Positions 12,669 through 63,466 of a DNA stretch of 64,000 nucleotides are shown here, piece after piece. The DNA comes from Bilabrum cf. latius. Lineage: Eukaryota. Both the position numbers and the translations under genes were made by a program. Below the pieces are notes generated by a model. That model was given only the letters and a program-made list of their open reading frames with translations, had not been told where the DNA came from and ran no database searches. How positions within the stretch are numbered: the stretch's first letter is position 1; every line of letters begins with the position of its first letter. The stretch is taken from assembly GCA_965178125.1 (NCBI GenBank), contig OZ237743.1, positions 620,001 to 684,000 on the forward strand, in the 5' to 3' direction.

Positions 12669-12740
12669 GTTCGGCTGGCACAATGGTAGCGCGCATCCTT
12701 GACACGGATGAGGTACTGGGATCGATACCCGGGTCGAATA
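12669..12740 (+). tRNA. tRNA-Val(GAC)
   Basis: 72-nt cloverleaf: acceptor GTTCGGC/GTCGAAT, D-loop AATGGTA, anticodon stem CATCC/GGATG with loop TTGACAC (GAC at 12701-12703), T-arm CTGGG-ATCGATA-CCCGG. Oligo-T follows; AT-rich stretch ~30 nt upstream. Confidence 0.85.
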
Positions 12741-40539: not shown

Positions 40540-40578
40540 ATGTACTGCACTTGACCGGCTATTCGCAGCACCTCGATG

Positions 40579-40634
40579 TCTCGCAGTCCATATGAAACCC
40601 GTAGTATACTACGGGTTTCATATGGACTGCGAGA
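40579..40634. repeat. Perfect 56-bp palindrome at the host/virus junction
   Basis: TCTCGCAGTCCATATGAAACCCGTAGTA|TACTACGGGTTTCATATGGACTGCGAGA, centre between 40606 and 40607. Confidence 0.97.
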
Positions 40635-41343
40635 GTAGAGTATAGGGGATTTTACTTTTGTTAAAAGTAATTACTTTCCATGAATTGTACAAGAGTCGAA
40701 ATTTCTGACTGGGTTATTCTGTACGTGCAGAGATGGATCGGGAGAGAGTGTTGCTGGGCGCGAACAGATTCTCCTGCGAGTTGCTGTGGATTCCGCAATT
40801 CCTTAATGGATATAATTTACTTCTCTAGGGGTTTCAAACGGGCGAGGGGCGGTCGCGGAGCGCACGTGCGCAGCGCGTGGTTCAGGTCCTCGATACCTCT
40901 CTTTGCACCCCTGATTTATGATCTTTCCGCCATGCCCTCCCTTTCCTGCTTAGCACTAGTATGGTTTGATCTCTTACACATGTGTATAATGTTCAAGGAT
41001 CTAATGCTTTGATCCATTCGCCCCTGAATTGGTCGTGAGGCATCAACCGTGAGGCATTGCTCCGTTCCTATGTAGACCGGAGCACTTTCCTTTGTAGATC
41101 GGAGGTGCCTCACCATTTCCTCGTGCCTCTCCTTGCCAATCAAGAGCAACAATTAAACTTCTACCCAGACCATTATATCATTTACTATACTATCCACCTA
41201 TTGTGTTGCACCCTGCTCTCTAACCTCTTTCCTTAACGAGTGATACCCCTCGCAAATTTCTCACAACTACAAGTGCAATCTGTAACCTTTACTTTTTTGC
41301 ATTTCGTAAAATTGAAACCTTTTTTCTACCATTATAATAGTAT

Positions 41344-42576
41344 ATGAGTTCTACTAACACACTAGTACAAGATATCAAGGCATGGTTAGCCACATAGTAC
41401 CACAATCCCAAGACCTTGGGCAACTACAATCGCGAGTGCAACACCGTTCTCCGCGCCCTACTCCAAAAGATTGGATGCAACCAGGACGCCCCTCTATCCC
41501 AAGAACAAATTGATACCGCCATGAAACAACTCAACAGCACCTATGCTTCGATGCGATGCTACTACGCCCTGCACCACCTAACAGCCTACCTCGGATGCCA
41601 AGGCTGCCAGAGCGAGCGCTTTCACCTGCTATGCAAAACCAAAGGCGAATGGGCGCTCAAGTTTCAATCAGATCGCGAAGAGCAACCCAAAAAGGATCTG
41701 CCTCTCACCCTTTAGCAGGCTCAAGAGCGGTTAGGTGCTGTGGATGCCACTGGGCTCAAGCAGCCCGAGCAGGTGGCACTCTTGTTTCTAACCATCCTCT
41801 ACTACATATCTCCTATCAGACCATCTGCTCTGTGCCAACTTGCCATCAGCACAGATCCAACTTTCCCCAATCGAATCGATCTCGATCGCAAGGTGCTGGT
41901 GGTGGGCAGCGACAAGGGGGTGGTCATTGGCACATCCTAGGAGCGAGATATGCCCATCAACGATCGAGTGGTGGAGATTGCCAGTCTACTATCCGATGAT
42001 ACGCCCTTGTGGAATAGCGGTGCAAAGAATTTCACCAGTCGATTGGTTAAACCTTACAGCCTGAAATGGTTGGAGTGCTACGTTTCACCCCAAAATATCC
42101 GCAAAATCTGGAGCAGTCAAATGGCACGTGGGTTATCACTCGATCAACGCAAAGCACTGTGCAGCGCCATGGGGCATTCAAAGAAAACCCAGAAAACCTA
42201 CTACCAAGAGTACAGAACCAGTGAGGAATAGGAGCATCTAGATGGATGCGATCTACCTGTACTGGGATTGAAATCACCTAAACCTAAACCCAAGATCAAG
42301 ATCAAACCCAAGCAGATCTCACTACCTATAGTGGAAACAAAATCGCCTGAACCTATACTTAAGCCTATTAAACCTAAACATAACAAACAATCCACTCTAC
42401 CTGTGATCGAGATTGAAAGCGATGAAAAAATGAAAACTCAATCTCCTAACAAACCTACTCCACCTGAACCTTCGGTTCTCTTATCTAAACAAGATGGGTT
42501 GTACAACCTACAAATCAATTACAAAGGGTTATCTAGAGATCAATACAAAGCAATCATGGATTTACTTGAAATTTAA
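41344..42576 (+). CDS. Tyrosine recombinase (410 aa)
   Basis: Four track ORFs fused via TAG. SPIRPS (Arg), QNIRKIW (second Arg), AMGHSKKTQKTYY (His/Tyr); Lys/Pro-rich tail; TAA stop. Confidence 0.8.
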
Positions 42577-42938
42577 AAGAGTTCCACATTTTGTGTCTCA
42601 CTTTTTACTTGGTTTAGTACGGATTTAATACAGAAGTTCTGTGTTCCATGTTTTTTTCACAATCTCTCTCAATATTTCATTTTTCACATTTTATGGAATT
42701 TCAAATTTATCATAATATCTGTGGTTGCCAGAAAAAAGAAGGAAACATGGAACATTTCTTTTAATTTCTTTTAAATTATGGAACATAACTTAGAACAAAC
42801 TTAGAACAACTCAAAAAAACTGAGAACACACTTATAATATACTAAATATATTGGATTACTAGAGAGCAATACAAAGCTTAGATATTCTCTATGTACTTAC
42901 ACAGAGAATGCGTGATTTACGATTAAATCCCTACCAAT

Positions 42939-43625
42939 TTACTCGCTCTTGGTACAGATTCTGATTTTGATTTTGATTTTGGGTTTTGCTTTGGATTGCT
43001 GTTCGAGCTGTTGCTGGTGTTGTTGGGATCGGCGATGTCTTACTATGTTAGTACGACAAACAACAGCTCCACATTCGCAAGTGATCTTCTCGCGCTGTCG
43101 CTCGTTAATCTTATCGCGATTGGTTTTGCGGTACTATTTTTTCTGCTCTAGAATTTGATCGCGGTTGGCTTGGCGGTATCGTTTTTTCTATTCGGAAATC
43201 TTGTCGCTATTGAGTTGATTATACCTTTTTTTCTATTCAGCAATCTTATCGCTATTGAGTTGATGGTATTGTTTGGTATATTGTCTGCGCCATTCTTTCT
43301 ATGTATGTGCAATAATACCCGATGGAGTACACTAATTTATGCAAGGATTGTTTTTAATGTAGTATGCTTCACGCAGTAGGAGTTCCTGTTTTGTTGAACA
43401 CGGGTAATTTTCTACCAATTTGATCGCTACTTTATCAAATCCACGTTCTAACAACTTGAATGAGGAGTAGTTGTTCGTCTTGCCGTGTTGCCATTGTTTA
43501 AAGTGATCTTTGTGCCCATTCAATCTCCTGTTTAATGTCTTGACGGTACTGCCATAGTATGGCAATAGTACTGGTGATTCGGTACTGTAAATCATATAAA
43601 TTTTTCCTTTTGAATAATCTGGCAT
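42939..43625 (-). CDS. GIY-YIG endonuclease with basic 14-aa repeats and C-terminal Zn finger (228 aa)
   Basis: GKIYMIY...YYGST...RLNGH, ELLLREAYYI; read-through gives repeats and ITCECG...RHRRSQQH. Confidence 0.88.
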
Positions 43626-43671: not shown

Positions 43672-44418
43672 ATGAATCTTAAAGATCAACCAAAACTAAA
43701 AATATTGGAGCTGTTTTGCGGGACGAAGTCAATCAGCAAAGCATTGCATAAACTACTTGGTAATAGAGTGGAAATCACATCACTCGATATCGAATCAAAA
43801 TATAAACCCACCATCTGCACTGATATTATGCAATGGGATTATAAACAAGCATTCCCTGTTGGATGCTTCGACTTTCTTTGGGCATCTCCGCCGTGTACCT
43901 TTTACTCACAAGGAAAGCACATGCTCAGAGATAAAAGCAAACTCGAAGCCCAAAGATAGGAATCAGATAAGATCGTACAACGAGTGTTGCATATAATTGA
44001 TTTTTACAAACCCAAATGCTTTCTAATAGAGAACCCCTAGACTGGTGAGCTTAAAAACCGCGATGTAATTCGTGGCATACCTTTTGTTGATGCCACATAC
44101 TGTATGTACGGCTATGTGTACTCAAAGAAAACTAGATTCTGGGGCAATCAGGCTTTGATCGATCAACTTCATCTCAAAGTTTGCAACAAAAACGACCATT
44201 GCCAACACTCATCCATCACCAACAAAGGTAACCTAAAACACCATTACTCAATCGCATCTGGACCATCCAAAGGATACCGATCTCAAAAAGTTATGTGGAA
44301 CCTGATGCGGTAGATTACTCAAATGCACACTCAATCTACCACTGAGATCCTCTTTTCTATACCCCCCGATTTAACCGAAACCCTAATGAAAACTGTTATC
44401 GATTTAGTGAATTCTTAA
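43672..44418 (+). CDS. DNA cytosine-5 methyltransferase (248 aa)
   Basis: ILELFCGT (motif I), WASPPC (IV), LIENP*TG (VI), YCMYG...KKTRFW; three in-frame TAG. Confidence 0.88.
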
Positions 44419-45429: not shown

Positions 45430-47925
45430 ATGAATACGATCCAATCTGATTTGATGTTAAAACAATTAGTGCCTTGCGAAACTACAGGATTCAAAGTAAA
45501 AACCAAGATGAAATTTCCAATGGAAAAGGTCGAACTAGTTAAAAAGTACCTCAAGTTTATCATGCCCAAAATCATTCACACCTCAACCAAACAATAGGAT
45601 GTTCAAGCACAAACAACTATGGTTGCTAACGCATGTAACTAGTGGCTTTCGGGATCAAAAGATAGTTCGATTCCTCTTACTTTCCATGTTAAAAACAACT
45701 TCGGCAGACTGGTCTCCAAAAAAGTAATAACTCCTGTTCAAATTATTCGTGGCATTCGGCACTATTTGTTTGAAAACCTATACACCGATCTCGATATTGC
45801 CAATGCCCACATTGAGTTTGCTTTCCAATTATACCCTGTTTTAATGGGTGGAGTTGTTCCTAAAGGCATTGAGTACATTGTTAAGAATCGCAAAGCCATC
45901 TTTCAACCATTCATGGATGAACACAAACTAACCAAGGATCAATGCAAAACTTTCGTATTTACTGTTTGTTATAAAGGTTCACTGGAAAAAACCCTTAGAA
46001 AACTTGGATTTGGTGGAGTTGCCGATCTCAAAAAAAATAGCCGATGGGCATACAATAGAATTTAGGAAGCGGCTTCCGAGTTTGAAACCCTTGCCAAGGC
46101 GGTTAAACAGCACATGGGTGATACTTGGAAAATTGTTCATTGTTCTGATAAATCCATTCAACAAAATAGATAGGATGTGAGCAAGTTTAGCATTGTGATG
46201 CAACACATTGAACACAAAATCACACTTGTGATTGCCGATTTCTTAAAACGCAAATATAATCTCGATGTTGCGGATTTCCAATTCGATGGTGTGTTTGTTG
46301 ATAGCATGAATCATAAACTAATCGAATCAATTATTCCTGAAATCGAATAGCACATTACCAAAATTACTGGTTTTAAACTCAAATTAACCGTTAAACCAAT
46401 CGATGGCACTATGGTTCGAGAAATCGTAGAAAAACTACAAACCGAAATCAGTGATGATTCCCCCGAGTTATTAGAAGGATCTGAAGTGGATAGCGATTTA
46501 GAGGCATCCGAAGTGTTTTGGAAAATCTACAAGAATCAAGTCGTAATTACCGAATCATCTATCTATTGTCTCGATAAATCCACACATCTCTACCAGCACT
46601 ACAGCAAATTCAATAAATTTCACCCTCTTTTTAATATGGTTCAAACCCTACGCTTAACTCGTAACAACAAACCTTACTCAGCCAACAACACGAACGCCAA
46701 AAACATTGTTGCCACCATTCTGGGAGATACCTCATTAATTGTCAATGATGTTGAATTTATCGATCAGATCAATCAATCCACCAAAGGATTACTGTTTTTT
46801 ACCGATAAAGTATGGAATTTCGCCACTCAAAAATTCGAGGAGTTTGAAAACCGATTTACACTATGTAACACTGGATACCCTGCTCCTATAGATGCATTTA
46901 AACAACTAAATATTGAAAAGGATAACTACCAATCAATCCAGTACCTCAAGAAAACCATTTTTAACGCCTTCGAAACCCAAGAAGAGGTTGATTACAACTT
47001 ATTTATTTTAGCACGAGCTCTTGCCGGACATGTTGAGGATAAATATTTTTCCTGTTGGGTTGGTGAGCGCGATTGTGGTAAGGGCACATTTATGGATATC
47101 ATCAAGTGTGCCATTGGAAACTATGCAAGGGATTCAGTTCCTCCTATTTGCTCTGATGTTTCCAACAGTGATGTTGCCCAACGAAACAGATTTGCTGTAA
47201 CGAGCAAGATAAATACTGGTAGATTGTGTTTTACCAATGAAGCAGGGATTGCCAAAAAATCCAATTCAACCATTACCTTGGATGGTGAGGTAATTAAGAG
47301 TGTGGTTGCAAGTGGCGGTGATGTTTTCTAGACTCGTAGAATGTTTGAAAACGAACAATCAATGAAAAACAACTGCACCTTTTTCATGCTGTTTAACTCT
47401 TATCCAAAAGCCAATCCATACGATGCCTTTCAAACTTGTTTGCCTGTTATTTTTCCAAAGAAATTCAGCAAGAAAGATCCGGATGTGGTTGGATAGGAGG
47501 ATTGCATCACAGATCTAAGAGAAAAAATTAGATAGCCTGAAATCTATATTGCGTTCTTATGGTGTTTGTTACACGCTTACAAACCCATTCCGGCACGTAA
47601 ATATCCTCGACCAGAATCCTTTTCTAAATCGATAATTGAGGTTGATTCTAAACCCTCTACTCGATTTGAAGTGTTTAAAAAATGCTTTCACAGAGATGAA
47701 TCATCCGTCTTGTCTTGGAACGAAATACGGGAAGTATTTGATCAATACATTAAAATCTCTCCATAGGCACTCCGTAAATTCCTAGAAAAACAAAAGTGCT
47801 CTATTCTTAGAACCTCTTACAAAGGTAAAACCCTTAAAATAGTCAAAGGAGTTGAGTTACGGGATCAATCCGAACCACAAGATGAAGTTAAACAGAGTTC
47901 CGCCCCCCGCTACGGTAATAAATAA
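45430..47925 (+). CDS. TVpol (PolA-like primase-polymerase) fused to D5-like SF3 helicase (831 aa)
   Basis: FGRL...IRHYLF...YTDLDIANAH, KTFVFTVCYKG, QHIE, FQFDGVF, then GERDCGKGT, FTNE, GGDVF*TR; at least nine in-frame TAG; TAA stop. Confidence 0.85.
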
Positions 47926-48072
47926 ATTTATTCCCTTCGGTTAAGGAAACAAGTTTCAATAATTACGTTCAGTCAGAGCTAAAGCTCTTCCCTCTCTCCA
48001 TTCCTTTTCTCGCTAGTCGCTCCAAAAGTCAAGGTGAGCCTCTTCATACTGCTACTTCATATAACTGCTTTA

Positions 48073-48265
48073 TCCTTCTAATTATAGAAAATCAATTATA
48101 TATAAAACTCTATACGATGACCATATCCACAAATTGCGTATTAGTATATGTATTATTTAGCAAAACGTGGATGTAGCCCTCTTGTGAAGGTGTTATGGGA
48201 CTCTAGCCATTTTCTAGCCAAAAGTTCCATCACTTTATGGGACTCCATTATTCAACCTTCTAAAC
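48073..48265 (+). repeat. Dispersed non-coding repeat, copy 1
   Basis: Core ATACGATG.C.ATATCCACAAATTGCGTA...TAGCAAAACGTGGATG...AAAAGTTCCATC, shared with ~58696-58910 and (inverted) ~63195-63406. Confidence 0.9.
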
Positions 48266-48346
48266 TACCTTCATTATACCCCCTTATCCTCGCTTATACC
48301 TTCACAAATGGAACAAACGCGCTTTTATTTTTAAAATGTTATAGAG

Positions 48347-48364
48347 CGTTTAAATTGACTTAAA
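48347..48364 (+). promoter_or_regulatory. Putative early promoter GTTTAAAWTGACTTAAA; other copies at 49457, 61941 and 62546
   Basis: Four copies, each ending 29-30 nt before an ATG. Confidence 0.7.
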
Positions 48365-48392
48365 AAATATATTTATTATAGGTATATACAGA

Positions 48393-49412
48393 ATGGAATT
48401 ATTAAAATGGGAAAATGGAACCTTGAAAGCTACACAACCAAAAGAATATTATGAACGAAATGGATTTTAGGTTAATTTTGAAGGGAAAACCTATCATATA
48501 GCAATGGATAAAGATTATATAAGATGGTTTTTGAAGGACTATAAACCTTATGAAATAATAACAACATTCATAACAGATATGAGTGAAGTATTCAATGGAT
48601 AGGATAAATTTAATGAACCTTTGAATACTTGGGATGTTTCAAATGTTAAGGATATGAGTTTAATGTTTCAAAGTTGTAGAAGCTTTAATCAACCATTGAG
48701 CAATTGGGATGTTTCTAAGGTTGAAAAAATGTCGTCTATGTTCTATTTTTGTTCTAAATTCAATCAATCATTGAACGATTGGAATGTTAGTAATGTTAGG
48801 GATATGAGTGGTATGTTTGGTTCTTGTTCAAGATTCAATCAATCATTAACAAACTGGAATGTTTCTAACGTTGAAAATATGTCCTCTATGTTTAATGGAT
48901 GTTGGAACTTCAATCAACCATTAAATAATTGGGATGTTTCTAAGGTTGAAAAAATGTCGTCTATGTTCTATCATTCTGAATTCAATCAATCATTGAACGA
49001 TTGGAATGTTAGTAATGTTAGGGATATGAGTGGTATGTTTGGTTCTTGTTCAAGATTCAATCAACCATTGGGTAATTGGGATGTTTCTAACGTTGAATAT
49101 ATATCCTCTATGTTTAATGGATGTTAGAACTTCAATCAACCATTGGATAATTGGGATGTTTCCAATGTCTAGAGTAAGTTTTAGATGTTAAAAGATTGTG
49201 AAAGTTTCAATCATTTAGAGAACGGTATTAAGGGTATAAGAATTGATTATTCTACAACATTGATACCGTTGTTAGAAAGACGAAAACATAAAACCATTAA
49301 AAAAACAAAGAAATATAGAGAGGAATTAATTGCTAAAGCGTGGCACCCTTCAAGATTAGATTGGGTATTGGATAACGAGGAGCGAGACGAGATAGAGGAT
49401 AATTTTAATTAA
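48393..49412 (+). CDS. DUF285/BspA-like repeat protein 1 (339 aa)
   Basis: About 25-aa repeats WDVSNVxDMSxMFxxCxxFNQPLxx; C-terminal EELIAKAWHPSR; TAG read-through. Confidence 0.9.
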
Positions 49413-49501
49413 TAGAATTTTAATAATATTAATGATTATTTAATATTATAGTGTGAGTTTAAAAAGGCTTAAATAATATATTTATTATAGGTATATACAG
49501 A

Positions 49502-50299
49502 ATGGAAGTTTTAAAATGGGAAAATGGAACCTTGAAAGCTACAAAACCAAAAGAATATTATTTTAGAAAAGATAATTATATTGTGAAATTTGAAGGTAAA
49601 ACATATTACGTAGCTAAAGATACAGATTTTCTTCTTCACGCATTGTAGTTTTTGAAACCTGAATTATTAGTAACAACATTTATTACGAATATGTTAAACC
49701 TATTTGATAATATGATAATTGAATCACCAATAAATTCATGGGATGTTTCAAATGTTAAAGATATGACCGATATGTTTTATGGGTGTCATTCGTTTAATCA
49801 ACCTTTAAATAACTGGGATGTTTCAAATGTTGAAGATATGGGCGGTATGTTTAATGAGTGTCATTCGTTTAACCAACCATTGAATAATTGGAATGTTTCA
49901 AATGTTGAAGATATGAGTGAAATGTTTAATGATTGCCATTCATTTAACCAACCATTGAATAATTGGAACGTTTCAAATGTTAAAGATATGTGCGGAATGT
50001 TTTATGATTGCCATTCACTAAATCAACCTTTAAATAACTGGGATGTTTCAAATGTTGTAGATATGGAATGTATGTTTTCTAATTGTTTTAGTTTTAATCA
50101 TTTGGAGAATGGAATTAAGGATGAACGAATTGATTATTCCACGACATTAATCCCATCATTAGAAGAGCGGAAAGATGAAACAATTGAACAAACTAAAAAA
50201 ATCAAAGAAGAATTAATTTCTAGAGCGTGGCACCCTTCAAGATTAGATTGGGTATTGGATAACGAGGAGCGAGACGAGATAGAGGATAATTTTAATTAA
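49502..50299 (+). CDS. DUF285/BspA-like repeat protein 2 (265 aa), paralogue of the previous gene
   Basis: Same repeats; near-identical N-terminus and identical last ~75 nt. Confidence 0.9.
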
Positions 50300-50340
50300 G
50301 TTTTATTATAATAATTATTTTATTTTTAATTATTATAGAT

Positions 50341-50688
50341 ATGGTTTATATTGTATCATTAGCGTGGGGTAGTGAATGTTATCATACACACTGGGTTAAA
50401 AAGTTTAATAATAAGGAAGAAGCACAAAAGCTTTATACTGACACTTTAAAAGACCAAGCGAAGAGAGTTGTATGGAGTGATAATTGGAAAGAAGAATATA
50501 AAAAGGAAGCAGAAGGTCAAGTTGAAAGTTTTAATGATGACAACGGAACCGATTTCAAACTATTGAAAGAAGAAGAAATTGATAACCTTACTAATAGTGA
50601 ATTAGAAGAGTATATAGAATTATCGTTGATGTATGCTGAAGAATATGATGATTCAAATGAATGGTTTGATATTGAGTTTTTAGAATAA
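50341..50688 (+). CDS. Acidic hypothetical protein (115 aa)
   Basis: Clean ATG..TAA ORF flanked by AT-rich spacers. Confidence 0.75.
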   Translation: MVYIVSLAWGSECYHTHWVKKFNNKEEAQKLYTDTLKDQAKRVVWSDNWKEEYKKEAEGQVESFNDDNGTDFKLLKEEEIDNLTNSELEEYIELSLMYAEEYDDSNEWFDIEFLE

Positions 50689-50735
50689 ATTTTTGAATTT
50701 TAATAATACTATTATTATTATTATTAATATATAGT

Positions 50736-51152
50736 TTAATCCTTGGGTAAGATAAAGTCATCTATAGCCTTTTTGATGATGTCATCCTTCTATTTCTTTA
50801 TTGATTTCTCAATGGCTTCCTTCTCTTTTTTAACCAATAAATCTATGGCTACGGTATCATTTAAGTCTTCACTTAGGCATTCAACATTTTCTTCATTTAG
50901 CTTGTGTATTATTCTAAATGGTTGAACGAAATATGATATATAATCAATTTCTTCAAATTCACTTAATACTCTTTTTTTAAGTCGTTCATTACAATCTGGA
51001 GGGACACGAAGGTCATCAAGTTGAAAATGCTTTAACATTGATGGTTTGTGCTTCTCAACATAAATATATACGATTGACATAAAAGTGGAGATGCTTTTAT
51101 TCTGGAATACCTTTTTAACGTTGACACTTGATAACAGGAACTTAACGAACAT
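50736..51152 (-). CDS. Hypothetical protein (138 aa)
   Basis: Track ORF extended through TAG 50790 to TAA 50736. Confidence 0.7.
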
Positions 51153-51253
51153 ATTATAATGTAGCCCAATATTTTATTTTAATTTATTAAACCCGTTTTA
51201 TAAAATTCTATAGTTTAAAAAAAATAAAAAAAATATCTAGTAATTATATATAA

Positions 51254-51625
51254 ATGGATAAATTACAAAAAGTGATTAATACCCGCTCAAAGTTAAAGAA
51301 TGAATTTCTTGATATTGTAGAAGACTTTAAGAAGACCAATCGTGAATTAGAACAAAAGTTAAAGCAACTAAAAATAAAAGAGACAGAATTAAAAAATAAA
51401 GTGAATAGTAAATTAACCGCTCTTAATGTGGAATATAAAGAGGTGAGCAAAAAGAAAGCAGAAGCTATAGCCCCTTATATGAAAACTTTAAAAGCATTAA
51501 AAGGAAGGATGAACGGACTCACTAAGAAAGAAAAATTAAAGCTGGTTGATATCCATTAGGAGATAAGAGACACCAAGGAGCACATTAAAACGAATGAAGC
51601 TATTAATAGGCTTTTTAATTCGTGA
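51254..51625 (+). CDS. Coiled-coil hypothetical protein (123 aa)
   Basis: Lys/Glu/Leu heptad-like pattern; extends through TAG 51557 to TGA. Confidence 0.7.
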
Positions 51626-51665
51626 ATAATTAATTTATAAATATTAAAATCAATTAATATATATA

Positions 51666-52823
51666 ATGAGTAAGAGAGGAAAGAAAAAAGATAATGATAT
51701 TAATGAATCAAGTTTTGGATTTAATACGAAGTCTATCACGAACGATTTAATGAAGCCGATAAAGAAACCGAAAGGATTGAATTATGTTAAATATTATAAA
51801 CCTACTAAAGAGGGGCTTATCCAATAGGCTGATTTATTGTATCTCCCTTACGCTACCAAGAACGATTCAAAATATTTATTAGTTGTGATAGATACTAGCG
51901 GATTAGCGTTAGATTTTGAAGAGTTAAAGGATAGAGGGGCGGAGGATGTGATAAAAGCTTTTCAAAAAATCTATAAAAGAAATTATTTAATGAAACCTAA
52001 AATGATACGAACAGATAAAGGGGGAGAATTTGATAATGAATCATTTAAAGAATATCTAAAGAAGAATAAGATAGAGCATATATTTTCAAGAGTGAAGCGT
52101 AAATCGTAGATGGCTTTGGTGGAGAGATTGAATGAGGAAATAGGGAGAGCTATATTTTATTATTTGAATTCATAGGAGATAAGAACGGGGACAACTATCA
52201 CGAACTGGAGACATTTAATACCAAAATTGAGGGAGATATTAAACGAGCGTTATAAAACAAGATAGGAAATGTTGAATAAGAAAAGGGAGAATCTACCATA
52301 TATACCGCCTAGATGTTAGGGTGAAGTATGTGATGTATTAAATGAGGGTGAAATGGTAAGAATAGGATTAGATTATCCTAGAAGTATAGAAGGGATAAAG
52401 GAGACCGGAGCATTTAGGGCGGGAGATATTAAATATAGCGTAAAGCCTTATAAAATTGAAAGAGTAATAATAAAACCAGATAACCCCCCATTATATAAAA
52501 TTGAGGGCATACCCTATACATACTTTAATAGAGATTAGTTGTTATTAGCATCTAAACCATACGAGAATAAAGCACAAGATATATTTATAATTGAAAAATT
52601 GATAAGAAAGAATAAAAATAATACATACAGGGTTAAATGGAAAGATTCATATGTTGATGAGGCTACTAAAAGAAAATATTAGAATGATATAGGTAAAATA
52701 ATAAAGAGAAGAAAGAATCAAGAGGGACAAGATGAATATTTAATTCAATGGAAGATAACAACGGAGCCGGCTAAAAATATATCAAAAACTCTAAAGGATA
52801 ATTTTAATAATAAGACTAAATAA
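51666..52823 (+). CDS. Retroviral-type (rve) DDE integrase with C-terminal chromodomain-like region (385 aa)
   Basis: IQ*ADLLYL, YLLVVID, IRTDKGGEF, ALVERLN; tail FIIEKLI...YRVKWK and EYLIQWK...EPAKNI. Confidence 0.92.
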
Positions 52824-52859
52824 ATATTATTAATTTATTATTTAATAATATTCAAATAA

Positions 52860-53477
52860 TTACACTCTGTAGGTCATATTATAGACTGACATAACCATCT
52901 ATGAAAGCCCTTCAAACGTATTATACACGCTATACTCATTAGGGTTAAAACTTTTCAAAAATTCAGCTCGTGAATGTCTTGCTACATCCTTATCTTCATT
53001 ATCTAAATCTTTATGGATTTTGCTATACAGTTTATCGCTGGGTATAGCTACGCATATGCTGGATTTTTTGAATATTTCTTGTGCTAGTTCAAAATCACTT
53101 GTTAAAAAGACTGCTCTATGTTCTGCTTTCTATAACCAATTTTTCTTTACAGACTCAATACTTTTTTTCATAAGTTCAAATTTTAATAATTTAGCCGTTG
53201 ATAAGTCCCCTCTTCGTTCTGCTTCGTTTAGGTATAAAACCTGTTTGGTGTCAGCATTAACTTTAAGGACTTCATCTAAATCAACTAATAGAATATTCGG
53301 GTCTATAGACGTTAAACTTTTGTTAAGTGAACTTTTACCTCCTTTTCGTGGAAGGACTAAACACAATTTTTTACGATTCGCAAGTGAGGAACATAAGTTC
53401 CAAAGGAAGCATCCCGCATATCCTAGAGGAACCAACACCCCACCAACCGTGCTTGCTGTTGCTACTAACTCTGCCAT
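52860..53477 (-). CDS. Protein with N-terminal hydrophobic segment and a divergent P-loop (205 aa)
   Basis: LCLVLPRKGGKSS followed by LLVDLDE; two TAG read through. Confidence 0.65.
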
Positions 53478-53522
53478 TATATATATCTATACAAAACAAA
53501 ATATTATTATCCTATAGACTAA

Positions 53523-55601
53523 TTATTTTAATAATCTTAGTTTTTCAAAGTGTTGATATAAGATTTGTTTTACCTTGTCCTTCACATTATGATTACCTTT
53601 ACCACCGGCTATATTAAAATATTCTTGTTCAATTTGTCCTCCTTTATGCTTGCCACATCCACAACTACCGCCCCTGTTCTATGTTTTTATTTTCTAATCA
53701 ATAATTAAATTAATAGCTTTCATTAACATATTATAAGGGTCTTTATTTCCGAAACCTTGAGCTGGTGGTGAATATGTCCATTGAGGCTTCCCGCTTAATT
53801 CATATCCCGTATCGTTTAGTCTTGATTTTGCTAATGTTCTATCACTTCTGGTTGCTCTTCCTTCTGTATTTGCTCTAGCTACTAAAGACCTAACAGCATC
53901 AGTTGATAAATTAGGTTGTAAGACTCCGGCTTTAAGCCTTCGTATAATATATTTTAAAGTGTTAATTGTTGGGCTGGCGTCTGTTGGATTTATTCCTCTT
54001 GCTTTTAACTATGATAATATTTCATTTTTATTGCCTTTAGCATTTATTGATTGTCCTATTGATTTGGCTATTTCATCATCTGTTTTCTGTGGTTCTTGTG
54101 GTTCTGCTGGTTCTTGTGCTGGTTCTGCTGGTTGTGCTTGTTGTGCTGGTTCTACGGCTTCTCCATCTCTTGGTTCTTCATCTGGGGCTCCCCTCCGTTC
54201 TCTAGCTTGTCTTTCTTTTTCTTCTTGTTGTCTTTGTGCTTCATCTCGTTCTGCCTGTGCTTGTCTTTGTCTGAATTGAACTTCTGTAAGTTGTCTTCCA
54301 AATTCATCTGTAATAGGTTCTCCATCTTCATCTACTGCCATCGCTTCACCTTTTCCTCTGTCTTGACCTGCGGGGGGTGCTTGTGGTTGTGAGCCTGTTT
54401 TTCCTGTTAAATAACTGATACCATCCATAACCGATTGTCCTAAAGAACCAAATGTGCTTTGTTGTTGTTCTGGTGATTGTCCTTGTTCTTGTTCTGGTGA
54501 TTGTCCTTGTGGTTCTGGTGATGCTTGTAAGAATCCACTAGGTGGAACTGGTGCGGGTGATACTTTTGAAAACTAGCCTGATAAATTTCTACTGGCGTTC
54601 TCCCCTTCTTCTTCTTGTCCTGATGATTGTGATGCCTCTTGTTCTTGTGCTTTTTGTTTAAGTTCTGATAATTTCTTCTAAGCACTTTTTATAAAATCAA
54701 CTTTAGACCGTCCTTTTACACCTTTAACATTTGACTCTCTAAGTATTTTTGCTAGTTCGGTTTTCTTTGGTGCTTTTCTACTACTTGAAGGATTGGCGTT
54801 TGCTACTCTTTCAAGTGCTTCAATTTGTTCTTGTAGTTCTGGGCTTAATGCTTCTTGTGGTGTTGGAGGGGGTTTTGGTCTTGGTTCTGGTGGCGGTTGC
54901 GGGTTATCTGGTTCAGGTCTATCAGGTTGCGGGTCATCTCTTTGCTATTGTTGAACGGCTTCAGGAGGATTTAAAACATCCTATAAAGCATTAACAGCGT
55001 CATCAACTTTTGTTAATTGTGAAACATTCTATCCTTGGGGGGTTTTCGTGATTCCAGCTTGTCGTAAAGCGTTTCGTATTTGAACTGCTTTTAATCCTCT
55101 CATATCGCTTGGTAATTGTTCTAATACTGCGTCCCGTTGTGCTTTAGTGGTTGTAAATAATCTCATATTAATATTTTTAATTCCATCAAATACCTTTTTC
55201 TTATCGCTTGCTGGTCCTACTACCTACCTTACATTAATATTATTAATGGTATCTACAACCTATCTTTTTAATTTATCCGGTAAATCTGGATTTCTATTTA
55301 TAAATGATTGTAAATTTTCTATTTGATAAATTGGTAATTCTTTTTTAGCGTTCATAGTCTTAATATTTTTAATAATATTTTCAATTCCTTGTTGTTGTTG
55401 TTGTCTTTCAATTCTAACATCAATAGGAACATAATTAGCACGAAGGAAAGCATCATCTTTTAGGGTTTTTCTTCTGGCTTCTGCTTCATCTTCTTCTTGC
55501 TATATCATTAATCTAACTTGTGGGTCATTTTGTATCCTAAGTTGATTAGACCGTTTCTACATAATACCCTTCAGTAAATCATTAATTGTATTGTTTGACA
55601 T
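53523..55601 (-). CDS. Large low-complexity protein, putative virion core/internal protein (692 aa)
   Basis: ATG 55601 is in frame with track ORF 54009..54428; Pro/Gln/Glu-rich middle; C-terminal RGG, KGG and IAGG motifs; TAA stop. Confidence 0.7.
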
Positions 55602-55678
55602 TGTATATATATATTATTAATGATATAATTAATAATTTATAAACTTAAGAGATAATATGTCAATTGGTAGGCTGTCTT

Positions 55679-56068
55679 TTAAAATGAAATATCCTTATTC
55701 ATAAGGTCGTGTTTCTTTATAAAGGAATTGCTGGCTTTCATAGTCATTCCCTTTTGACGGCACCATTTCATTAATTTATCCCTCTTTAACTATTTAGCAC
55801 TACGGGGCTTTTTAGCTTTAGGGGCTTTCTTTGAACCCTTCTTTTTTCCTCCAGCAAGATAATTGGGACCTCCAGCGAGAACGTTCGGCTATCCACCAAG
55901 AAGGTTCAAAGCTCCCCCTTTTGTCTTTCCTTTTGTGGTTGCGTTTAATATTTGGTTTGCTGTATCTTCAACCATTTTATCAATTTCTTTTTTATAATCA
56001 TTTCTGTTTATTCCAAGATGATGAAGGCTTTTATTTGTCATATCATTTATGCTCTATTTAACGCTCAT
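55679..56068 (-). CDS. Small basic putative DNA-binding core protein (129 aa); absent from the ORF track
   Basis: KGGALNLLGG*PNVLAGGPNYLAGGKKKGSKKAPKAKKPRSAK*LKR...GMTMKASNSFIKKHDL. Confidence 0.75.
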
Positions 56069-56125
56069 ATTATTGTATATATTGGGTATATATAATTTGT
56101 TATTTATCCATACTTATAATATATA

Positions 56126-56941
56126 ATGAAAATTAATGAATTGACACAAGCTTATTTTAATGAATACGAGAACGATATATTTGATGAGGTGAATTTTAAG
56201 AAGGGGGCTAATTTATTTTTAAATGGTTCGTATGCTATTCCTTATTATTCCTTGTTTGCTAGTGATATAGATTTATATTAGAGGGTAGAGCCTGAATTTA
56301 TAAATAGTTTAATAAGATTTGTAAAGGTTTTTATAAGTTAGGTTAATTTTATTGAGGTTAAAGCTGGTAATAAAAAATACAAGACCATAAAAGCATTCAT
56401 ATCTACACCCGTTAAAACCATTTATAAATAGATATTTAGCGGAGATAAACCATACTTAAAAATTGATTTTTGGGCTTTTGATGGAAAATTTATAGATGAA
56501 ATAAGCATAATTTATCATATAAGTGATTATGAAATAGATTAGGACGAGGTAAAAGATGGATTAATAAGAGATGTAGATAAATATTTTGGTTCTAATAATT
56601 TTAAAGTATTAAAACGATTGAAGGATTTATTTAAATTAAGAGGTGAGAAGAGGAATGAAAAAAGAGTCAATGATTTAATTGATAGGGAAGCATTAGGATA
56701 TTTATATTCCATAAGAATGCGATTAGAAAGTATGCTAAGAATAAAAGGACATCAAAGCGAGAAGTCAAAATCATTTCAAAGCCTAAAAGGACTAATGAGA
56801 AAAGCATTAGGAAATGTGGAAATAATAAAACAATTTTCAAAGTATTCTAAAGCAAATATTAATAAGATAATATCGTGGATTGACCAATACATAAATAGGA
56901 AAACACGGGCGGAAATTAAAAATATAATTATGTCTCTATAA
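56126..56941 (+). CDS. Nucleotidyltransferase-fold-like protein upstream of the ATPase (271 aa)
   Basis: LNGSY...ASDIDL (GS..DxD pattern) and LKIDF; N-terminal half visible only with TAG read-through. Confidence 0.65.
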
Positions 56942-57033
56942 CTTTTTTTGTGAGGAAGGATAGAAGAAGGAACCAACTTAATATTTTAAACCCGTGTGAA
57001 TAAATGGTTTATTTTATTTTATTATTATATATA

Positions 57034-58104
57034 ATGCTATCTTTACAATATACGGAAAATAGCCATATTGTAGCTATTCAAAAATACAAAAAAACACAAT
57101 AGAACCGGTTTATTTATTACGACCCGAACGCTAAAGATATTCAACACGTCAAAGCGGAAGAGATAACAGATGATGTTTTAAAATCTTATTACGGAGAAAG
57201 CCGAGTAAGATATAACGTTGATAAGGACAAGAAAAGGGAACAATTACATAAACTATTACAAGATGAATATATACGGTCAGTTTAGGAATTTGCGATTAAA
57301 GATAATAGTCAATATTTACCTTTTCCTATGCTCTTTCCATAGGGGCGTGAATATGTGCGATTATTTGGTAAGAGTGGAAGCGGGAAAAGTCATTTAGCTT
57401 TACATTATATAAGGATGTATAGAGGATTAAAATATAAAAATATGTATGTTATATCACCAATTCAAGACCCTAAATATAAAAGAGAAGGCGCGACCTTCAT
57501 TGATATAGATGATTTGGTTAAAGAGAATGAAAACACTTTATATAAGGAAAAAATGGCTTATTATAAAAAAATGAAATTAGAATTTAAATATAAGAAATCT
57601 TCTTTGATGAAATCTAAACCTTTAGATGTTGTTATTGAAGCTGAAAGAAAGATAGAGGATTTGAAACCTGAGAAAGATTTAATAGAAAAAGGTTTTAAAT
57701 TAAATGTTGAGTTTTTTAAAAAATTGACCGCTGAACCTAATTTATTTATTCTGGATGATTACGAAGGCTTTAAAAAAAGGAACCAGAAAGCAAAGGCTTA
57801 TTTTTTATTGGAAATCCTAGCAACTACAGGAAGGCACACAGCAAGTAGCGTTTTAGACATCACCCACAAAATAAGCGACGGTATGAAGACACGAACCATT
57901 ATGAACGAAATTACAACCCATATCATTTATAAAACAATTACAGCTAAAAGTTTAAAATATATTTTAGAAACAGTCTTAAGTTTTGACGCTCCTACTAGAA
58001 AACGAATTAAAAAAACCCTTCATTCTCTCCCTCTCTTTGGTTATGTTGCTATTAATGTTGATAATAATTATGTAGTTAGCACAAAAAAAATATTTCTCTA
58101 TTGA
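57034..58104 (+). CDS. FtsK-HerA/A32-type genome packaging ATPase (356 aa)
   Basis: GKSGSGKS, FILDDYE, TTGRH, ITH; TGA stop. Confidence 0.92.
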
Positions 58105-58112
58105 ATATATAA

Positions 58113-58688
58113 ATGAACATAAACGACTTAAATAGACTAGTCCAAACACCGTTATCTCCTTTAGAAATTCAAAAATTAGGTGTAGCACATTTGAATTACA
58201 AACCTAGAATAGTTATTTACGATGATATTATTAAATAGACCTCATCTATTGAACATATTTTTGATGGTAATGACGGCGTAATTATTTATTATCCTAATAA
58301 AAAGACGGGACTAAATAGCACATACGGTCATTATTGCGCTCTTACTTAGGACGAAAATAATAAAACTATTTATTTTTTTGATAGCTATGGAGAAAAACCC
58401 GACCAATAGAAACCATTTATTAATAGAAACCAATTGTATCAAGGAGAAGGAGAAGAGAACACACTAGTTAAATATTTATTGACGTAGAAATTACACGGCT
58501 GGAAAATTGACTATAATAATAAACCTATTTAGAGTTATGCTAATTAGAGTGCTACTTGTGGAAGATGGGCATTATTAAGAACTGTTTTCTCATTCTTAAC
58601 TAATGATTAGTTTGTAAATGAAATGTTTAGAATATCCAAAATTATGGCTCTTAGTCCTGATTAGTTAGTGGCGTTGCTTCTACATTGA
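58113..58688 (+). CDS. Adenain-like cysteine maturation protease (191 aa); absent from the ORF track
   Basis: GHYCAL (His), YFFDSYG (Asp), YNNKPI*S (Gln as TAG 58530-58532), ATCGRW (Cys). Confidence 0.93.
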
Positions 58689-58695
58689 ATACCCC

Positions 58696-58910
58696 GCCCT
58701 TCTAATAAAAGGGCTAGAATAAAATAATAAAATATGATTATCTCTAAAATAAAATCCATACGATGGCTATATCCACAAATTGCGTATATATTATAGTGTT
58801 TTCTAGCAAAACGTGGATGTAGGGCCTCTTGTGAAGGTGAAATGAAGATATAAGCCCTTTTATTTAGAAAAGTTCCATCGTTTTAGAAGGGCTATTTTTC
58901 ATCCATCTAA
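58696..58910 (+). repeat. Dispersed non-coding repeat, copy 2
   Basis: See copy 1; contains the 9-bp inverted pair GCCCTTCTA (58696) and TAGAAGGGC (58884). Confidence 0.9.
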
Positions 58911-59024
58911 ATTCAATCAAACTTTTAAATATATTGGTAAAAGTGAAGGGTAAAAATCAAGGTGAAATATTAGATAAGGTTTATTAATAAATATTTATTT
59001 GTATAGCTTTAATATATAAATAAA

Positions 59025-59978
59025 ATGAGTTATAGCGATGAATTTGTAAGATTGAATTTAGTTAGTTCATCTGTCCCCCACAATTAGACGAGATAGGCGG
59101 TAGTGAATGAAACCCGTGAAGGCTTAATATTAAAACAAAGTGAAAATTATTTAACGGCTGTTGAAGAGATGGATTTAAATAAATTTATGCTACCGGTGTT
59201 TAAACCTGAATATTAGGATGACAGCGGTAAAACCTATTTAAAATTTACTCTTGAGAATAAAACATCAGGAGCCAGAGCAGGCGATTATATAGTTCTAGGT
59301 AAAAAAGCTAAATTTTATTATTCATATTAGGATATTGTAAATGAATTTAATGAAGAGTTAAGCCGAATTTGTGATTTGGTAAGCCTTCCAAGTGGTGATA
59401 AACCAGTCTTTAAATTTGAAAATAATAAATGGAGTTTATCAACAACTGAAGATTTTAGAGATAATTATTATTTATTTGTTAATTTTGAAGCTTTTGCTTT
59501 ATTTGATAAATTTGAATATGAAGGAATAACAACCACACCGAGTGATTTATTTGCTAAACTTTCATATAATAATTCCCCTGCTAGTGGTGATTATGTTTTT
59601 ATGGCTAGATAGACGAATTTAAATTCTTGGTGCCCTGTTAAATCTATTATCGTAGAAAGTGATATTCCAGTGAATAAAGAATTGGTGACCACAAAATCAT
59701 CTACTGGTGGCTCTATAGCCGTCAATAAATCCCCTATATTAACCAGCTACCCGTATAATCCTAATGACAGCTCACCAATAGAAAATATATTATATGTTTC
59801 TAATCCTTACCGCTGGTATTCAATGATGAAGGATAGAAGCTTTAAGAGCGTGTCAATGGCGTTCTACTGGGTTGATAAACAAAATGAAAAGTATCCCGTA
59901 ATGAATTTTAACGGGGGTGAAGCTCACATTAAACAAGTATTTAAAAAACAAACCGATAATTTAAGTTTAGATTTTTAA
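59025..59978 (+). CDS. Minor capsid (penton) protein (317 aa)
   Basis: Beta-rich ORF lying between protease and MCP; WCPVKSIIVESDIPV, PYRWYSM, FYWVDK resemble virophage penton segments. Confidence 0.8.
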
Positions 59979-60049
59979 ATAAATTATAGAAGATTATAAA
60001 ATATGTTTAGATATTAAAAAATTTATATCTATAGTGTATATATAAAAAA

Positions 60050-61939
60050 ATGGCTCAACAAATGGTTCAGAATTTACCAGTAAGCATTAAGGCTCCTAAA
60101 AGCCTTCAAATGATAACCCCTGAAGATGCTAGTTTAGGAACAGAACTAGGTGTTCAAAAATATACCCGCCGAGAAATTAGACCATCATCTAATCAATCTA
60201 ATTCTCTTCTTCCCCTTTCTTTCCCCGTTAATCCTACTAGTAAAACCGTATCAAGGTTTATTCGTCTTCGTCATCGTATGACAGTTAGGCTACAACTAGA
60301 GCAAGCAGTACCAGCTCAAACTGCGGGAGGTGATGCTATTACCGCTCAATCTTATCTTAAATCTAGGTTTGGAACTAATTCATTACCTACCTTTAAAATG
60401 CTTCAAGGTGGTGTTTTAACAATTAATGGATAGCCTTTTACAGTAAAAGTTTATGAATGGGCTGAACCTACCGAAGTTATGAACAGTGAAGAAACCTTAT
60501 CCACAATCTCACCCGTTGGACGCCCTGACACTGTTGGTGATTATCGTGAAGTAAGTGATACCCTTAAAAATCCTTTAGCTTGGGGTTAGGATGTTGGATA
60601 TAGTGCCGGTGATAGCTTTAGTTATCGTGGAGCATATGGGAATGCTTTTACGACTGTAAATGCTGATTTCGTTGCGGGTAATAGAGACCAAATTGATTGG
60701 ACTATTGATTTTCAAGAAGCTATACCACTAAAAGGAGCAGATGTTGATGTGAATGCTAAATATTTCACCGGTGTGAGAAGCCTTCAGGTTGATTTAGATT
60801 ATCACGTAAATGCCATTCAAAGACTGTGTAAGGCTAGTTTTACAAAAGATAACGGAGATATTAACAAAATAACGGGTTAGTCAATTATAGGAGAAACAAA
60901 TACGACCCTTCTTGTTGATGAAGTTGAATTTTAGAGTGGATACGCCCCCCCGACTCGTTGTATGTATAATATGCCTACAATTAAATTTTAGTCTTAGGCG
61001 CCTGTCCCTGTACCTAAATCCGCAACTGAAAATTCTTTAACTTCTTTTGATTATCAATTATCCCGTGAGAATGGTATCCCTAGTGCTATTATGGTATGTG
61101 CCCGCCTTGTTGGTTGTGATGATAACCCTAACTGGGCTAATAGAACTTTACCAATTAGAAGAATAGGTTTCTCACTCAATGGAAGCGCTGAGGAATTAGG
61201 GGCTGTAGATAATCCACACGAATTATATAGAATTAGTAGAAAGAACGGATATGCTCTTCCTCCTTCATCCTTTTATGGTTCATCAATTGATGGAAGTGAT
61301 GGAAACCGCGGTACTGGTTGCTATATGATTTTAAAACCTTCAGATGTTGCTACACTTGCTGGTGTTCAATCTAATGTAAATACTGGATTTAATCTTAAAG
61401 TTAATCTTCAGTGCTTCAACCCTTATAATAAATATGCGGATGGTGCGTATGAGGATAAATACGAGATAAAAGTATGGATGTTTTATGATAATGTTCTTGT
61501 GAATGATAACGGTGTCTATACTGAGGCTGGCGCCCTTATTGAGCCTTCTAAAGTGCTTTCTGAACTTGCTAAACGTGGTGATGCTGAAAGTGGTTCTAAA
61601 GGTTTCTAGCCTGTATTTGAGGATTTAGATAATTATGCTAATGTTATGGGTGGAAAAGGTCGTTTCTGGTCTAAGATTGGACGAGCCTTTAAACACGGAT
61701 GGAATCAGGTTAAAGATTGGGCAAAAAGTGATTAGGCTAAAAACCTAGCGAAAACCATTAGGAATATAGGACCACTCAAAAGTCTAACAGGAGACAATAG
61801 CGCTATTGGCAAAGCGGCGGCACATTATGGATATGGAAATAGTGGAGGAGAATTGAATAAGCTTGGTGGAAAACTTACGATGCGTGGTGGCTAGGCTATG
61901 CGTGGGGAAGATCTCGAGGCCCTTTTAAGCACATCTTAA
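60050..61939 (+). CDS. Virophage-type double jelly-roll major capsid protein (629 aa)
   Basis: Length, position after the penton, IPSAIMVCAR, ELYRISRKNG, and a C-terminal amphipathic/GG-rich tail; track ORFs 60050 and 61091 fuse via TAG. Confidence 0.88.
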
Positions 61940-61986
61940 ACGTTTAAAATGACTTAAATATATATTAACTAACTAATATATATCAA

Positions 61987-62277
61987 ATGGAAAAGTTAAA
62001 TAAAATTATTGAGAATCTACCGCCTACACACGATGTCTATATCCAGACAGAAATTGATGGAGTTTTGACCGTAATTTTTACAAACAGTGATTAGGTAAAA
62101 GAAATCACCAATCAATTAAAAAAAGACAGTAGAGAGAAGCTATTATATCTCAAATATTCAACCTATAAATGTATTATATAGACGAGGAATAAGTATAGAG
62201 ATGATGACATTGTACTTCATTATTTGGCTGTTTGTCTATTAGAAAAGAAACCCATTCAATTATATAAGGCAAGATAA
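61987..62277 (+). CDS. Hypothetical protein (96 aa)
   Basis: ATG..TAA with two TAG; preceded by the conserved promoter motif. Confidence 0.65.
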
Positions 62278-62328
62278 TCATTTTATTATTTATTTATACA
62301 TATTAAATAAATATATGACCTGTGAATG

Positions 62329-62441
62329 ATACTTTCCAAAGTAGGTTCATACTTTTCGAAGTTGGTTCACACTTTTCAAAGTAGGTTCATACTTTCCGAA
62401 GTTGGTTCATACTTTTCAAAGTAGGTTCATACTTTCCAAAG
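62329..62441. repeat. Non-coding 20-bp tandem repeat (about 5.6 units)
   Basis: Unit GTWGGTTCAYACTTTYCRAA, with alternating variants giving a 40-bp super-period. Confidence 0.95.
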
Positions 62442-62592
62442 AACTATTTAACCGGTCTAATTAATTAATATTTTAATAATATTAATTATTATAATCACTT
62501 ATATCTATAGTGTCTATTTTTAAGCCCCTAATTTATAATATAACGCGTTTAAAATGACTTAAAGATTATATTATATAGATATTATATAGAGA

Positions 62593-63144
62593 ATGTGTAA
62601 AAAGTGTATTGAACAAATATAGGAACATACCGGTAATATAAAGTGGATGGACATTTAGAAGAAATTAATTCATATTGGCTCAACCGTTATTCAAGGTGAT
62701 AAATTGGGTAATTGTATTTGTGGGCACGAGATACGAACCGAGCACGAAATAGAGCATACCCCTAGTGGATATGTTTTTAAAGTGGGTTCTAGTTGTATAA
62801 AGTAGATGATAAAGGATAAAGAAAATCAAATTCGTAAAAAATGTTTATATTAGTGGTGTGGAATATGTAAAAAAGATGTCGCAAGAGACCGATATAATAA
62901 GCACTGTGAAGGAATAAGACATATTGAGTTAGAAAAGAAATAGAAAAAGTTAGAGGAAAAAAAGAGGAATGAAAAAAGATGTGATGTGTGTCTTTGTAAA
63001 ATGCTTAGAGGTGATTGGAGGACAACCTGTAAGTCTTGTTATACGATTACAAAATATGGAAAAAAGGCGTGTAAAAAATGCGGAGTGTCTAGAATTAAAG
63101 ATATGAAATATTCAATTTGTTATAAATGTCATATTGGTAAATAA
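62593..63144 (+). CDS. Multi-Zn-finger protein (183 aa); absent from the ORF track
   Basis: CICGHEI...VGSSCI, CGIC...KHCEGIRH, four further CxxC pairs; several TAG. Confidence 0.8.
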
Positions 63145-63194
63145 TAATTAGATATTAATGATAAAATTAATATTTAACATATTGATGATGGGAG

Positions 63195-63406
63195 TTAGAA
63201 GGGGCTATATTACAACCTTCTAAAGTGATGGAACTTTTGGGCTAGAAATACGATATCAATCAAATCATCTTCATAAAACTAATCCATCCACGTTTTGCTA
63301 AATAATACATATACTAATACGCAATTTGTGGATATAGCCATCGTATGGATTTTATTATAGAGATAACCATATATATTTTAATATTCTAGCCCTTTTATTA
63401 GATGGT
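63195..63406 (-). repeat. Dispersed non-coding repeat, copy 3 (inverted)
   Basis: Reverse complement of copies 1 and 2. Confidence 0.9.
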
Positions 63407-63466
63407 CAAGGTGTTCAACTATTAATAAAGATATCATATTTAATATTAGTATAAATATTAAATTAT

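Follow-up and report, generated by a model that had tools for sequence, protein, structure and literature searches.

The window, a stretch of 64,000 nucleotides from a Bilabrum cf. latius contig, passes from host to viral DNA at a perfect 28+28 bp palindrome that occupies exactly positions 40579-40634. The next-best palindrome in the window reaches only 9+9, and the chance expectation of a perfect 28+28 palindrome is about 1e-12 per window. GC content changes across it from ~0.6 on the host side (left) to 0.3-0.5 on the AT-rich viral side (right). The viral genes to its right (Table 1) belong to an endogenous virophage, family A, into which a second virophage, family C, has inserted; the final codons of the family A primase-helicase gene extend into the nested element, and the capsid and integrase genes visible in the window are those of family C, not family A. 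At its left end, family C carries two tandem DUF285 (BspA-like repeat) genes (48393-50299). The host DNA to the left contains a set of long inverted repeats at 4012-5751 and 12719-13783 (60-108 nt, 77-97%), beside a tRNA-Val-like gene (12669-12740); they possibly represent a transposon family. The host flanks of the family A element, 39961-40573 (-) and G000:C9:713865-714740 (-), are open in matching minus-strand frames with no Pfam hit, so that the element may split a host reading frame.

Table 1. Features of the family A element and its nested insertion, in window positions unless a contig coordinate is given.
Feature	Position	Strand	Detail
5-bp target-site duplication CGATG	40574..40578	.	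again after the element's far end, G000:C9:713860
Left terminal inverted repeat, 303 bp	40579..40881	.	99.7% identical to right, G000:C9:713557-713859
Terminal palindrome, perfect 56 bp, family A; putative opened hairpin terminus	40579..40634	.	10/10 ends
Stem-base motif GAGA/GTAG(A/G)(G/A)TAT; candidate nick site	40631..40643	+	shared with family B
Tyrosine recombinase, 410 aa, 4 TAG read through	41344..42576	+	core-binding and catalytic domain, Xer/phage-integrase type
Subterminal repeat	42571..42831	.	86% like the stretch after the terminal inverted repeat at the other end
GIY-YIG endonuclease gene, 228 aa, 5 TAG	42939..43625	-	
C5 DNA methyltransferase gene, 248 aa, 3 TAG	43672..44418	+	
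Primase/polymerase-SF3 helicase, 831 aa as read, 9 TAG	45430..47925	+	DUF5906, primase PHROGs; PolA-like motifs by eye
Second virophage (family C), nested; has pPolB, C-run ends and a 6-bp duplication (GTTCCG); terminal palindrome absent	47903..64000	.	continues to G000:C9:694012
Virophage major capsid protein	G000:C9:710030-711751		Pfam MCP_V20_C E 7.8e-11, above cut-off

When the source genome was searched with positions 40500-40720, all ten candidates matched, the nine other places only from the palindrome's first base inward. They are the ends of five family A elements (C9:660579-713859, C5:266313-300127, C3:1089237-1142529, C7:1143574-1171651 and C25:306763-332314), with different flanks at each copy; the left flank in the window occurs once in the assembly. 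An earlier, sequence-only reading of the locus had described a flawless 28+28 bp palindrome at the host/virus boundary about 700 bp upstream of the recombinase, and this was accurate in each part: copies match from 40579, GC content drops there, and the recombinase ORF begins 709 bp inward of the palindrome. It had also treated the palindrome as a feature of one insertion junction. The placement at the boundary holds, and the one-sidedness does not, as the palindrome starts the terminal inverted repeat (TIR) at both ends of all five elements. The far end and the genome search, which that reading had proposed to consult, both returned the palindrome, and the adverse outcome that it had envisaged, absence from other copies, did not occur.

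The palindrome keeps its symmetry when its sequence changes. In the C25 copy four positions per arm differ, all four changes are mirrored in the opposite arm and pairing is still perfect; the next 60 bases of the TIR have diverged too. The motif at the stem base has 18 matches in the whole genome, 16 of them at virophage ends and two elsewhere (reversed control, 0), and is common to families A and B, whose palindrome interiors are unrelated. Public short-read contigs lead from the host flank into the palindrome as far as its axis (40607-40608) in three of four runs, the runs with the best match to the window possibly being the source sample. None of these contigs bridges the whole palindrome, and they break at the axis because short-read graphs must break there. 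Contig depth over the TIR is ~9-13x that of the flank, a ratio that does not give copy number and is silent on free virus. No RNA run appeared among the public datasets with matching sequence, a result equally silent on expression.

Family A elements measure 25-28 kb once nested insertions are subtracted. Their TIRs, which open with the palindrome, span approximately 303 bp (627 bp in C25), and a 5-bp target-site duplication (TSD) flanks all five copies, each with its own sequence. They encode an rve integrase (Pfam rve E 2.8e-16; D-D-E residues aligned). By its capsid, TIRs, 5-bp TSD and rve integrase, family A is an endogenous rve-integrated virophage, and its ends have the form known for rve-integrated virophages and Polintons. 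The unusual integration or excision route suggested by the earlier reading thus gives way to an ordinary set of 303-bp TIRs, 5-bp duplications in five of five copies and the element's own integrase. Further ORFs (C9:711777-712688, 703621-704631 and 712712-713233) we take to be penton, packaging ATPase and cysteine protease genes, respectively, from size, order and the motifs of known virophages; a Pfam search of these candidates gave nothing above cut-off. The family also encodes two methyltransferases and GIY-YIG, SET, lipase and TET/JBP-like genes, together with a tRNA-Met(CAT) gene (G000:C9:698618-698688) found in the other four copies as well. No RuvC/A22 resolvase or Rep nickase was found in the subset of ORFs scanned. 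The recombinase block sits between the TIR and the subterminal repeat, and a contig joint from 40881 to 42571 corresponds to the sequence of the other end.

Several features of gene content vary among copies. The primase-helicase gene of the other family A copies is replaced in C3 by a different one (L035:2698-4998), and a family B copy on the same contig carries tRNA-Pro and tRNA-Met (L030:8678-9064) on a block 92% shared with family A. Families A and B encode a TET/JBP oxygenase fused to an FkbM-type methyltransferase, and family B a T4-type RNA ligase (L025:1040-2173; L033:1705-3759; L030:7225-8319), for which base-modification and RNA-repair functions are possible. Several virophages contain GC-rich insertions of 6.6 kb (G000:C5:290835-297494; L093:200-720), which have split repeats and a frame similar to RT/RNase H and resemble the Ngaro retrotransposons of EMALEs. 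Virophage-in-virophage insertion occurs twice, with family C in the end of family A's primase-helicase gene and family B in A's capsid gene on C3 (G000:C3:1092119-1120788).

Reading these genes appears to require a non-standard code, in which TAG is most likely a sense codon for Gln while TAA and TGA stay stops. With TAG alone treated as sense, ORF cover of viral tiles increases from 0.05-0.31 to 0.36-0.84. Among ORF pairs of at least 60% identity, Gln stands opposite TAG in 30 of 59 cases; a public recombinase homologue has Gln at three of the four recombinase TAG positions, and the genome contains a short-armed tRNA with a CTA anticodon (L044; G000:C23:907607-907679). Host genes offer thin evidence, namely two in-frame TAGs in seven HSP70 matches, for one of which three paralogues have Leu. 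Core genes of virophage families A, B, C and E contain 33-46 TAGs per about 2,500 codons and those of family D none in 2,488, as if the TAG-rich and TAG-free families were adapted to hosts of either code.

An integrase search of the genome (68 matches among 71 candidates) located sister families whose ends are also palindromic. The palindromes of families A, B, D and E are mutually unrelated in their interiors and differ in length (65 nt in B, 65-69 in D, 101 in E); the integrase of B is 54% identical to that of A, the integrase of E only 29%. Family B (three elements) has a 32+1+32 palindrome, framed as in A (TCTC...GAGA, then GTAG.GTAT). Its central unpaired base is T at three and A at three of the six ends, and the three elements are T/T, T/A and A/A. 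Family D (four elements) has palindromes of the form TG...CA, full at seven of eight ends; one element is mixed T/A, and two others carry versions that have diverged yet still pair. One further D-like element, on C14, has ends obscured by insertions.

The imperfect palindrome of family E makes the orientation of each end readable. The 28 ends listed divide into 26 full ones and two without the outer arm; two ends have a common flank and may be one event, and one further weak match lies outside the count. The full ends comprise 12 flip and 14 flop isomers, exact reverse complements that differ at 43 positions over about 60 nt, with no intermediates and at most two other differences. This split does not depart from 1:1 (12/26; binomial p 0.85), and the TIRs of these elements are still almost identical. 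Eleven elements have both ends full, ten of them with a clean 5-bp TSD: three are flip/flip, four flop/flop and four mixed. The same isomer thus stands at both ends in 7 of 11 family E elements, as it does in two of three in family B. By analogy with vaccinia and AAV, near-equal isomers that assort independently at the two ends, as in families E, B and D, are the expected signature of hairpin termini. Separately, three ends have lost the outer arm to within about five bases of the axis (G000:C28:120798, C36:491885 and C2:77183); two of the three keep the terminal 2-4 bases and the TSD and are therefore internal deletions.

Terminal palindromes and protein-primed DNA polymerase B (pPolB) were not found together among these families. 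A pPolB profile, built from four of its five positives and with Pfam support for F and I, matches families C, F, G, H and I and finds nothing in the four of five family A copies scanned or in B, D and E (best E 0.33). Lacking pPolB, family A is therefore neither a Polinton nor a mavirus-type element. The five pPolB-bearing elements end in C/G runs (C, F, G, H) or AGTAGT (I), with no terminal palindrome in any, and the nested family C virophage serves as an internal control, pPolB being present and the palindrome absent. In the integrase tree (10 rows, none dropped) A, B, D and E together with I stand apart from C, F, G and H at 100/100, whereas in the capsid tree (8 rows, none dropped) the hairpin-ended D pairs with the pPolB-bearing H, also at 100/100. 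From this conflict we conclude that end type follows the integrase/replicase module and not the capsid. Element I (C12), a nested element, combines pPolB and Polinton-type ends with a nearby integrase of the hairpin clade; an imperfect 51-bp hairpin starts 10 bp inside its end, and gene membership across the nesting is ambiguous.

Outside the source genome, a viral-contig scan with a single integrase query confirmed none of five candidates, and one with an alignment query gave three loci. A metagenome scan kept 80 of 447 loci, of which 20 were examined, making 23 with the viral-contig loci. Palindromic element ends were seen in none of these 23 contigs, nearly all of which are fragments and hence silent on the generality of such ends.

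The recombinase beside the palindrome is apparently intact, judging by its reading frame. We considered that it might be a pseudogene and rejected this, as every internal stop is TAG and read-through restores the frames. Catalytic positions assigned by motif are R159, K192, R254, H278 and Tyr287/288; across five aligned recombinases R, K, R, G-H/N-S and Y are kept and the first His of HxxR is lost. The motif MGHSKKTQKTYY, given as the end of the protein by the sequence-only reading, is followed by about 120 residues. Neither Pfam nor PHROG gives a match, and homologue searches return close kin only (one protein among 3998 candidates; six representatives, mostly fragments). The family A and B enzymes are homologous, at 30%. 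A predicted structure (pLDDT 75, pTM 0.51) matched XerA by Foldseek (E 8.4e-6), and giant-virus recombinases too. In a wider structural search it was closest to the Brujita integrase (Z 11.5; rmsd 14.6, 243 aligned) and XerA (11.0; 16.4, 242), with the protelomerases TelA (Z 6.3; 4.3, 147) and TelK (5.6; 9.7, 215) at ranks 38-49. The modelled fold therefore favours, though not decisively, an ordinary Xer/phage integrase over a protelomerase. This comparison with known enzymes had been proposed by the earlier reading, which judged an ordinary viral tyrosine recombinase to fit at least as well, and the scores agree with it. The gene lies 709 bp from an end in family A and near an end in B, and occurs in three of four hairpin families (A, B and D) but was found in none of the five pPolB elements; it may well act at the ends for this reason. 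A full scan of one family E copy gave no recombinase (best profile match E 0.38; ORFs listed), and genome searches gave none inside any family E interval; these searches have low sensitivity, since Pfam misses these enzymes. The enzyme thus seems dispensable for hairpin ends, and it seems to be an accessory rather than a protelomerase, with a possible role as resolvase.

Taken together, these results make the palindrome probably the end of a linear virophage genome whose replication passes through terminal hairpins. Of the options raised by the sequence-only reading, the opened hairpin terminus is thus the one that gains support, from the position of the palindrome at both ends, its kept symmetry and the flip/flop isomers of the sister families. 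Because the family A palindrome is perfect, flip and flop are invisible there, and the mechanism is carried over from those families. In the free genome a 28-bp hairpin would form at each end, probably a covalently closed one, otherwise the product of a palindromic 3' end snapping back on itself, and the primase/PolA-helicase would copy through the hairpin tip. A nick at the stem base, after ..GAGA in A and B and after ..CA in D and E, would resolve the resulting junction, passing the hairpin to the other strand and so inverting it each round. Opening of the end at the same position would yield a 3'-OH for the rve integrase to join to host DNA, after which gap repair would fix the whole hairpin as a 56-bp palindrome. 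As a 6-bp cut cannot invert asymmetries far from the axis, the opening point should be the stem base, which is also the host-joined end. We infer both the covalent closure of the ends and the identity of the nicking enzyme, most likely the integrase itself or a resolvase from a helper giant virus, rather than the recombinase. The contigs examined contained no free genome, fold-back read or concatemer junction, none of which this type of data can show.

The alternative closest to this mechanism, and compatible with it as a variant, assigns resolution to the tyrosine recombinase, which in A, B and D would give closed hairpins, with no need of a ligase, by cutting and rejoining the Holliday junction of the extruded cruciform base, family E borrowing a resolvase in trans. 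The distribution of the enzyme, its proximity to ends and the catalytic residues kept in all five aligned proteins speak for it. So do the tyrosine recombinase (YR) found beside rve in every pPolB-less mid-GC EMALE covered in the accessible text of PMC8547959 and the end-module idea as outlined in PMC11296320. Against it are the negative searches in family E, low in sensitivity as they are, and the lack of a common interior in the A and B palindromes even though their recombinases are homologous; we consider it rather unlikely. Far less credible is a recombinase that acts as a protelomerase on the 56-mer, with cuts at the axis spaced 6 bp apart in the manner of TelN. The match of 56 bp to the TelN core length in the available part of PMC12624138, the shared YR/topo IB fold and the three sister-family ends truncated within about five bases of the axis point that way. 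However, TelA and TelK score below the Brujita integrase and XerA (in a model of pTM only 0.51), and two of the truncated ends are internal deletions. An axis cut would also integrate as a half-site, whereas integrated ends keep the whole palindrome, and the sister palindromes measure 65, 68-69 and 101. Cuts spaced 6 bp apart, as protelomerases are described to make in the accessible portion of PMC3558466, cannot invert the family E asymmetries, which lie tens of bases away. The fold, the sister family in which no recombinase was found and an inverted segment that far exceeds a 6-bp cut accordingly tell against the protelomerase option of the earlier reading.

Other accounts dispense with hairpin replication altogether. 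Palindromes are unstable in chromosomes, and the isomers could have arisen after integration by template switching or arm recombination, the palindrome being only a protein-binding or excision signal; three ends have indeed lost an arm. The isomers are nevertheless near 1:1 in elements with almost identical TIRs, no end shows partial inversion or conversion to a perfect palindrome, and occurrence tracks the absence of pPolB, so that this account is improbable. A circular free form, with the TIRs joined by a single palindrome that the integrase opens by staggered nicks 56 bases apart, would also place a full palindrome and TSD at both ends. AAV has single-junction circles (PMC11575299, in the text available), and tyrosine recombinases typically make circles (10.64898/2026.10.13.758929, likewise). 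Such a circle predicts one flip and one flop in every element, contrary to the seven of eleven elements in E and two of three in B that have the same isomer twice, and as a sole route it is disfavoured to the point of being very improbable. The isomers frozen in chromosomes thus argue against both a single-junction circle and a protelomerase cut. Panhandle copying of one end from the other was rejected, as it predicts no mixed elements and 4 of 11 in family E are mixed. Least probable of all, and hardly tenable, is that the palindrome is a recombinase attachment site, host sequence or an assembly fold-back artefact, as the adjoining recombinase and the short-read contigs that break at the axis might suggest. 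The boundaries are the same and a 5-bp TSD is present at 10/10 ends amid unrelated flanks, the elements have their own rve integrase and there is no shared att core, which also tells against the attachment site entertained by the earlier reading. Moreover, sister elements that lack the nested family B copy show its insertion site without a palindrome, the C25 variant is copy-specific and compensated, and host-to-palindrome contigs occur in three of four runs.

The preferred reading, replication through hairpin ends, bears on how virophages and Polinton-like viruses that lack pPolB copy their ends and on what form of DNA their integrase acts on. The isomers point to one phosphodiester bond, and the isomer count can be repeated on any long-read protist assembly. 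Termini, integrase and replicase would move as one module between capsid lineages; end modules are discussed in the accessible parts of PMC11296320 and 10.64898/2026.10.13.758929, with general background in those of PMC11788076, PMC11161782 and PMC12624138. More tentatively, and with the odds against it, pPolB-less virophages might include a widespread class with poxvirus-like closed hairpin genomes, in which a single sequence-specific nick by the rve integrase at the stem base both resolves replication dimers, so that flip/flop ends arise, and supplies the 3'-OH for integration. If true, a DDE integrase would act as a telomere-resolving nickase.

Among known systems, TelN, TelK and TelA resemble the present one in the YR/topo IB catalytic fold and in a palindromic target (56 bp in N15). 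They differ in that the recombinase matches them less well than it does Xer proteins and integrases, and in a resolution point that here would lie at the stem base, not 6 bp around the axis. Poxvirus telomeres and AAV rolling-hairpin ITRs are closer. Like the ends described here, they exist as two reverse-complement isomers in equal numbers, with the two ends independent, as the available text on vaccinia (PMC8956199) and AAV (PMC11575299) attributes to hairpin termini. Unlike them, the virophage ends serve a DDE integrase as substrate too, neither an A22-type resolvase nor a Rep nickase was seen among the ORFs scanned, and closure is presumptive. The mid-GC EMALEs of Cafeteria burkhardae (PMC8547959, as far as its accessible text goes) are alike in the absence of pPolB, a long primase/helicase, their own rve version with a YR, short TSDs and GC-rich retrotransposon insertions. 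They are unlike in that hairpins and palindromes are absent from the accessible main text, and the present comparison is by gene set rather than by ends or capsids.

The closest palindrome-ended systems known are virophage subtypes 1, 2, 5 and 6 and PLV subtype 4 of Halocafeteria seosinensis, described in a preprint of July 2026 (10.64898/2026.07.28.741278). Its accessible text reports palindromes at TIR ends beside TSDs, connects them with replicases other than pPolB and with certain integrases, and describes rve together with a YR. It offers hairpin priming as an untested model in which hairpins form after excision, accidental annealing being left open. The feature itself is therefore known, and family A, compared by description only, shares the palindrome in the TIR beside the TSD, the non-pPolB replicase and the distinct rve clade. 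The systems differ in host, in flank GC (about 0.6 here, 0.47 there) and in the use of TAG as a sense codon here. In the main text of the preprint, as accessible, the words flip, orientation, isomer, concatemer and resolvase are absent. When the literature on virophages and Polintons was searched for flip/flop or hairpin termini, with most subscription journals and bioRxiv supplements uncovered, only this preprint came up. The flip/flop isomers are thus new sequence evidence for hairpin-end replication in virophages.
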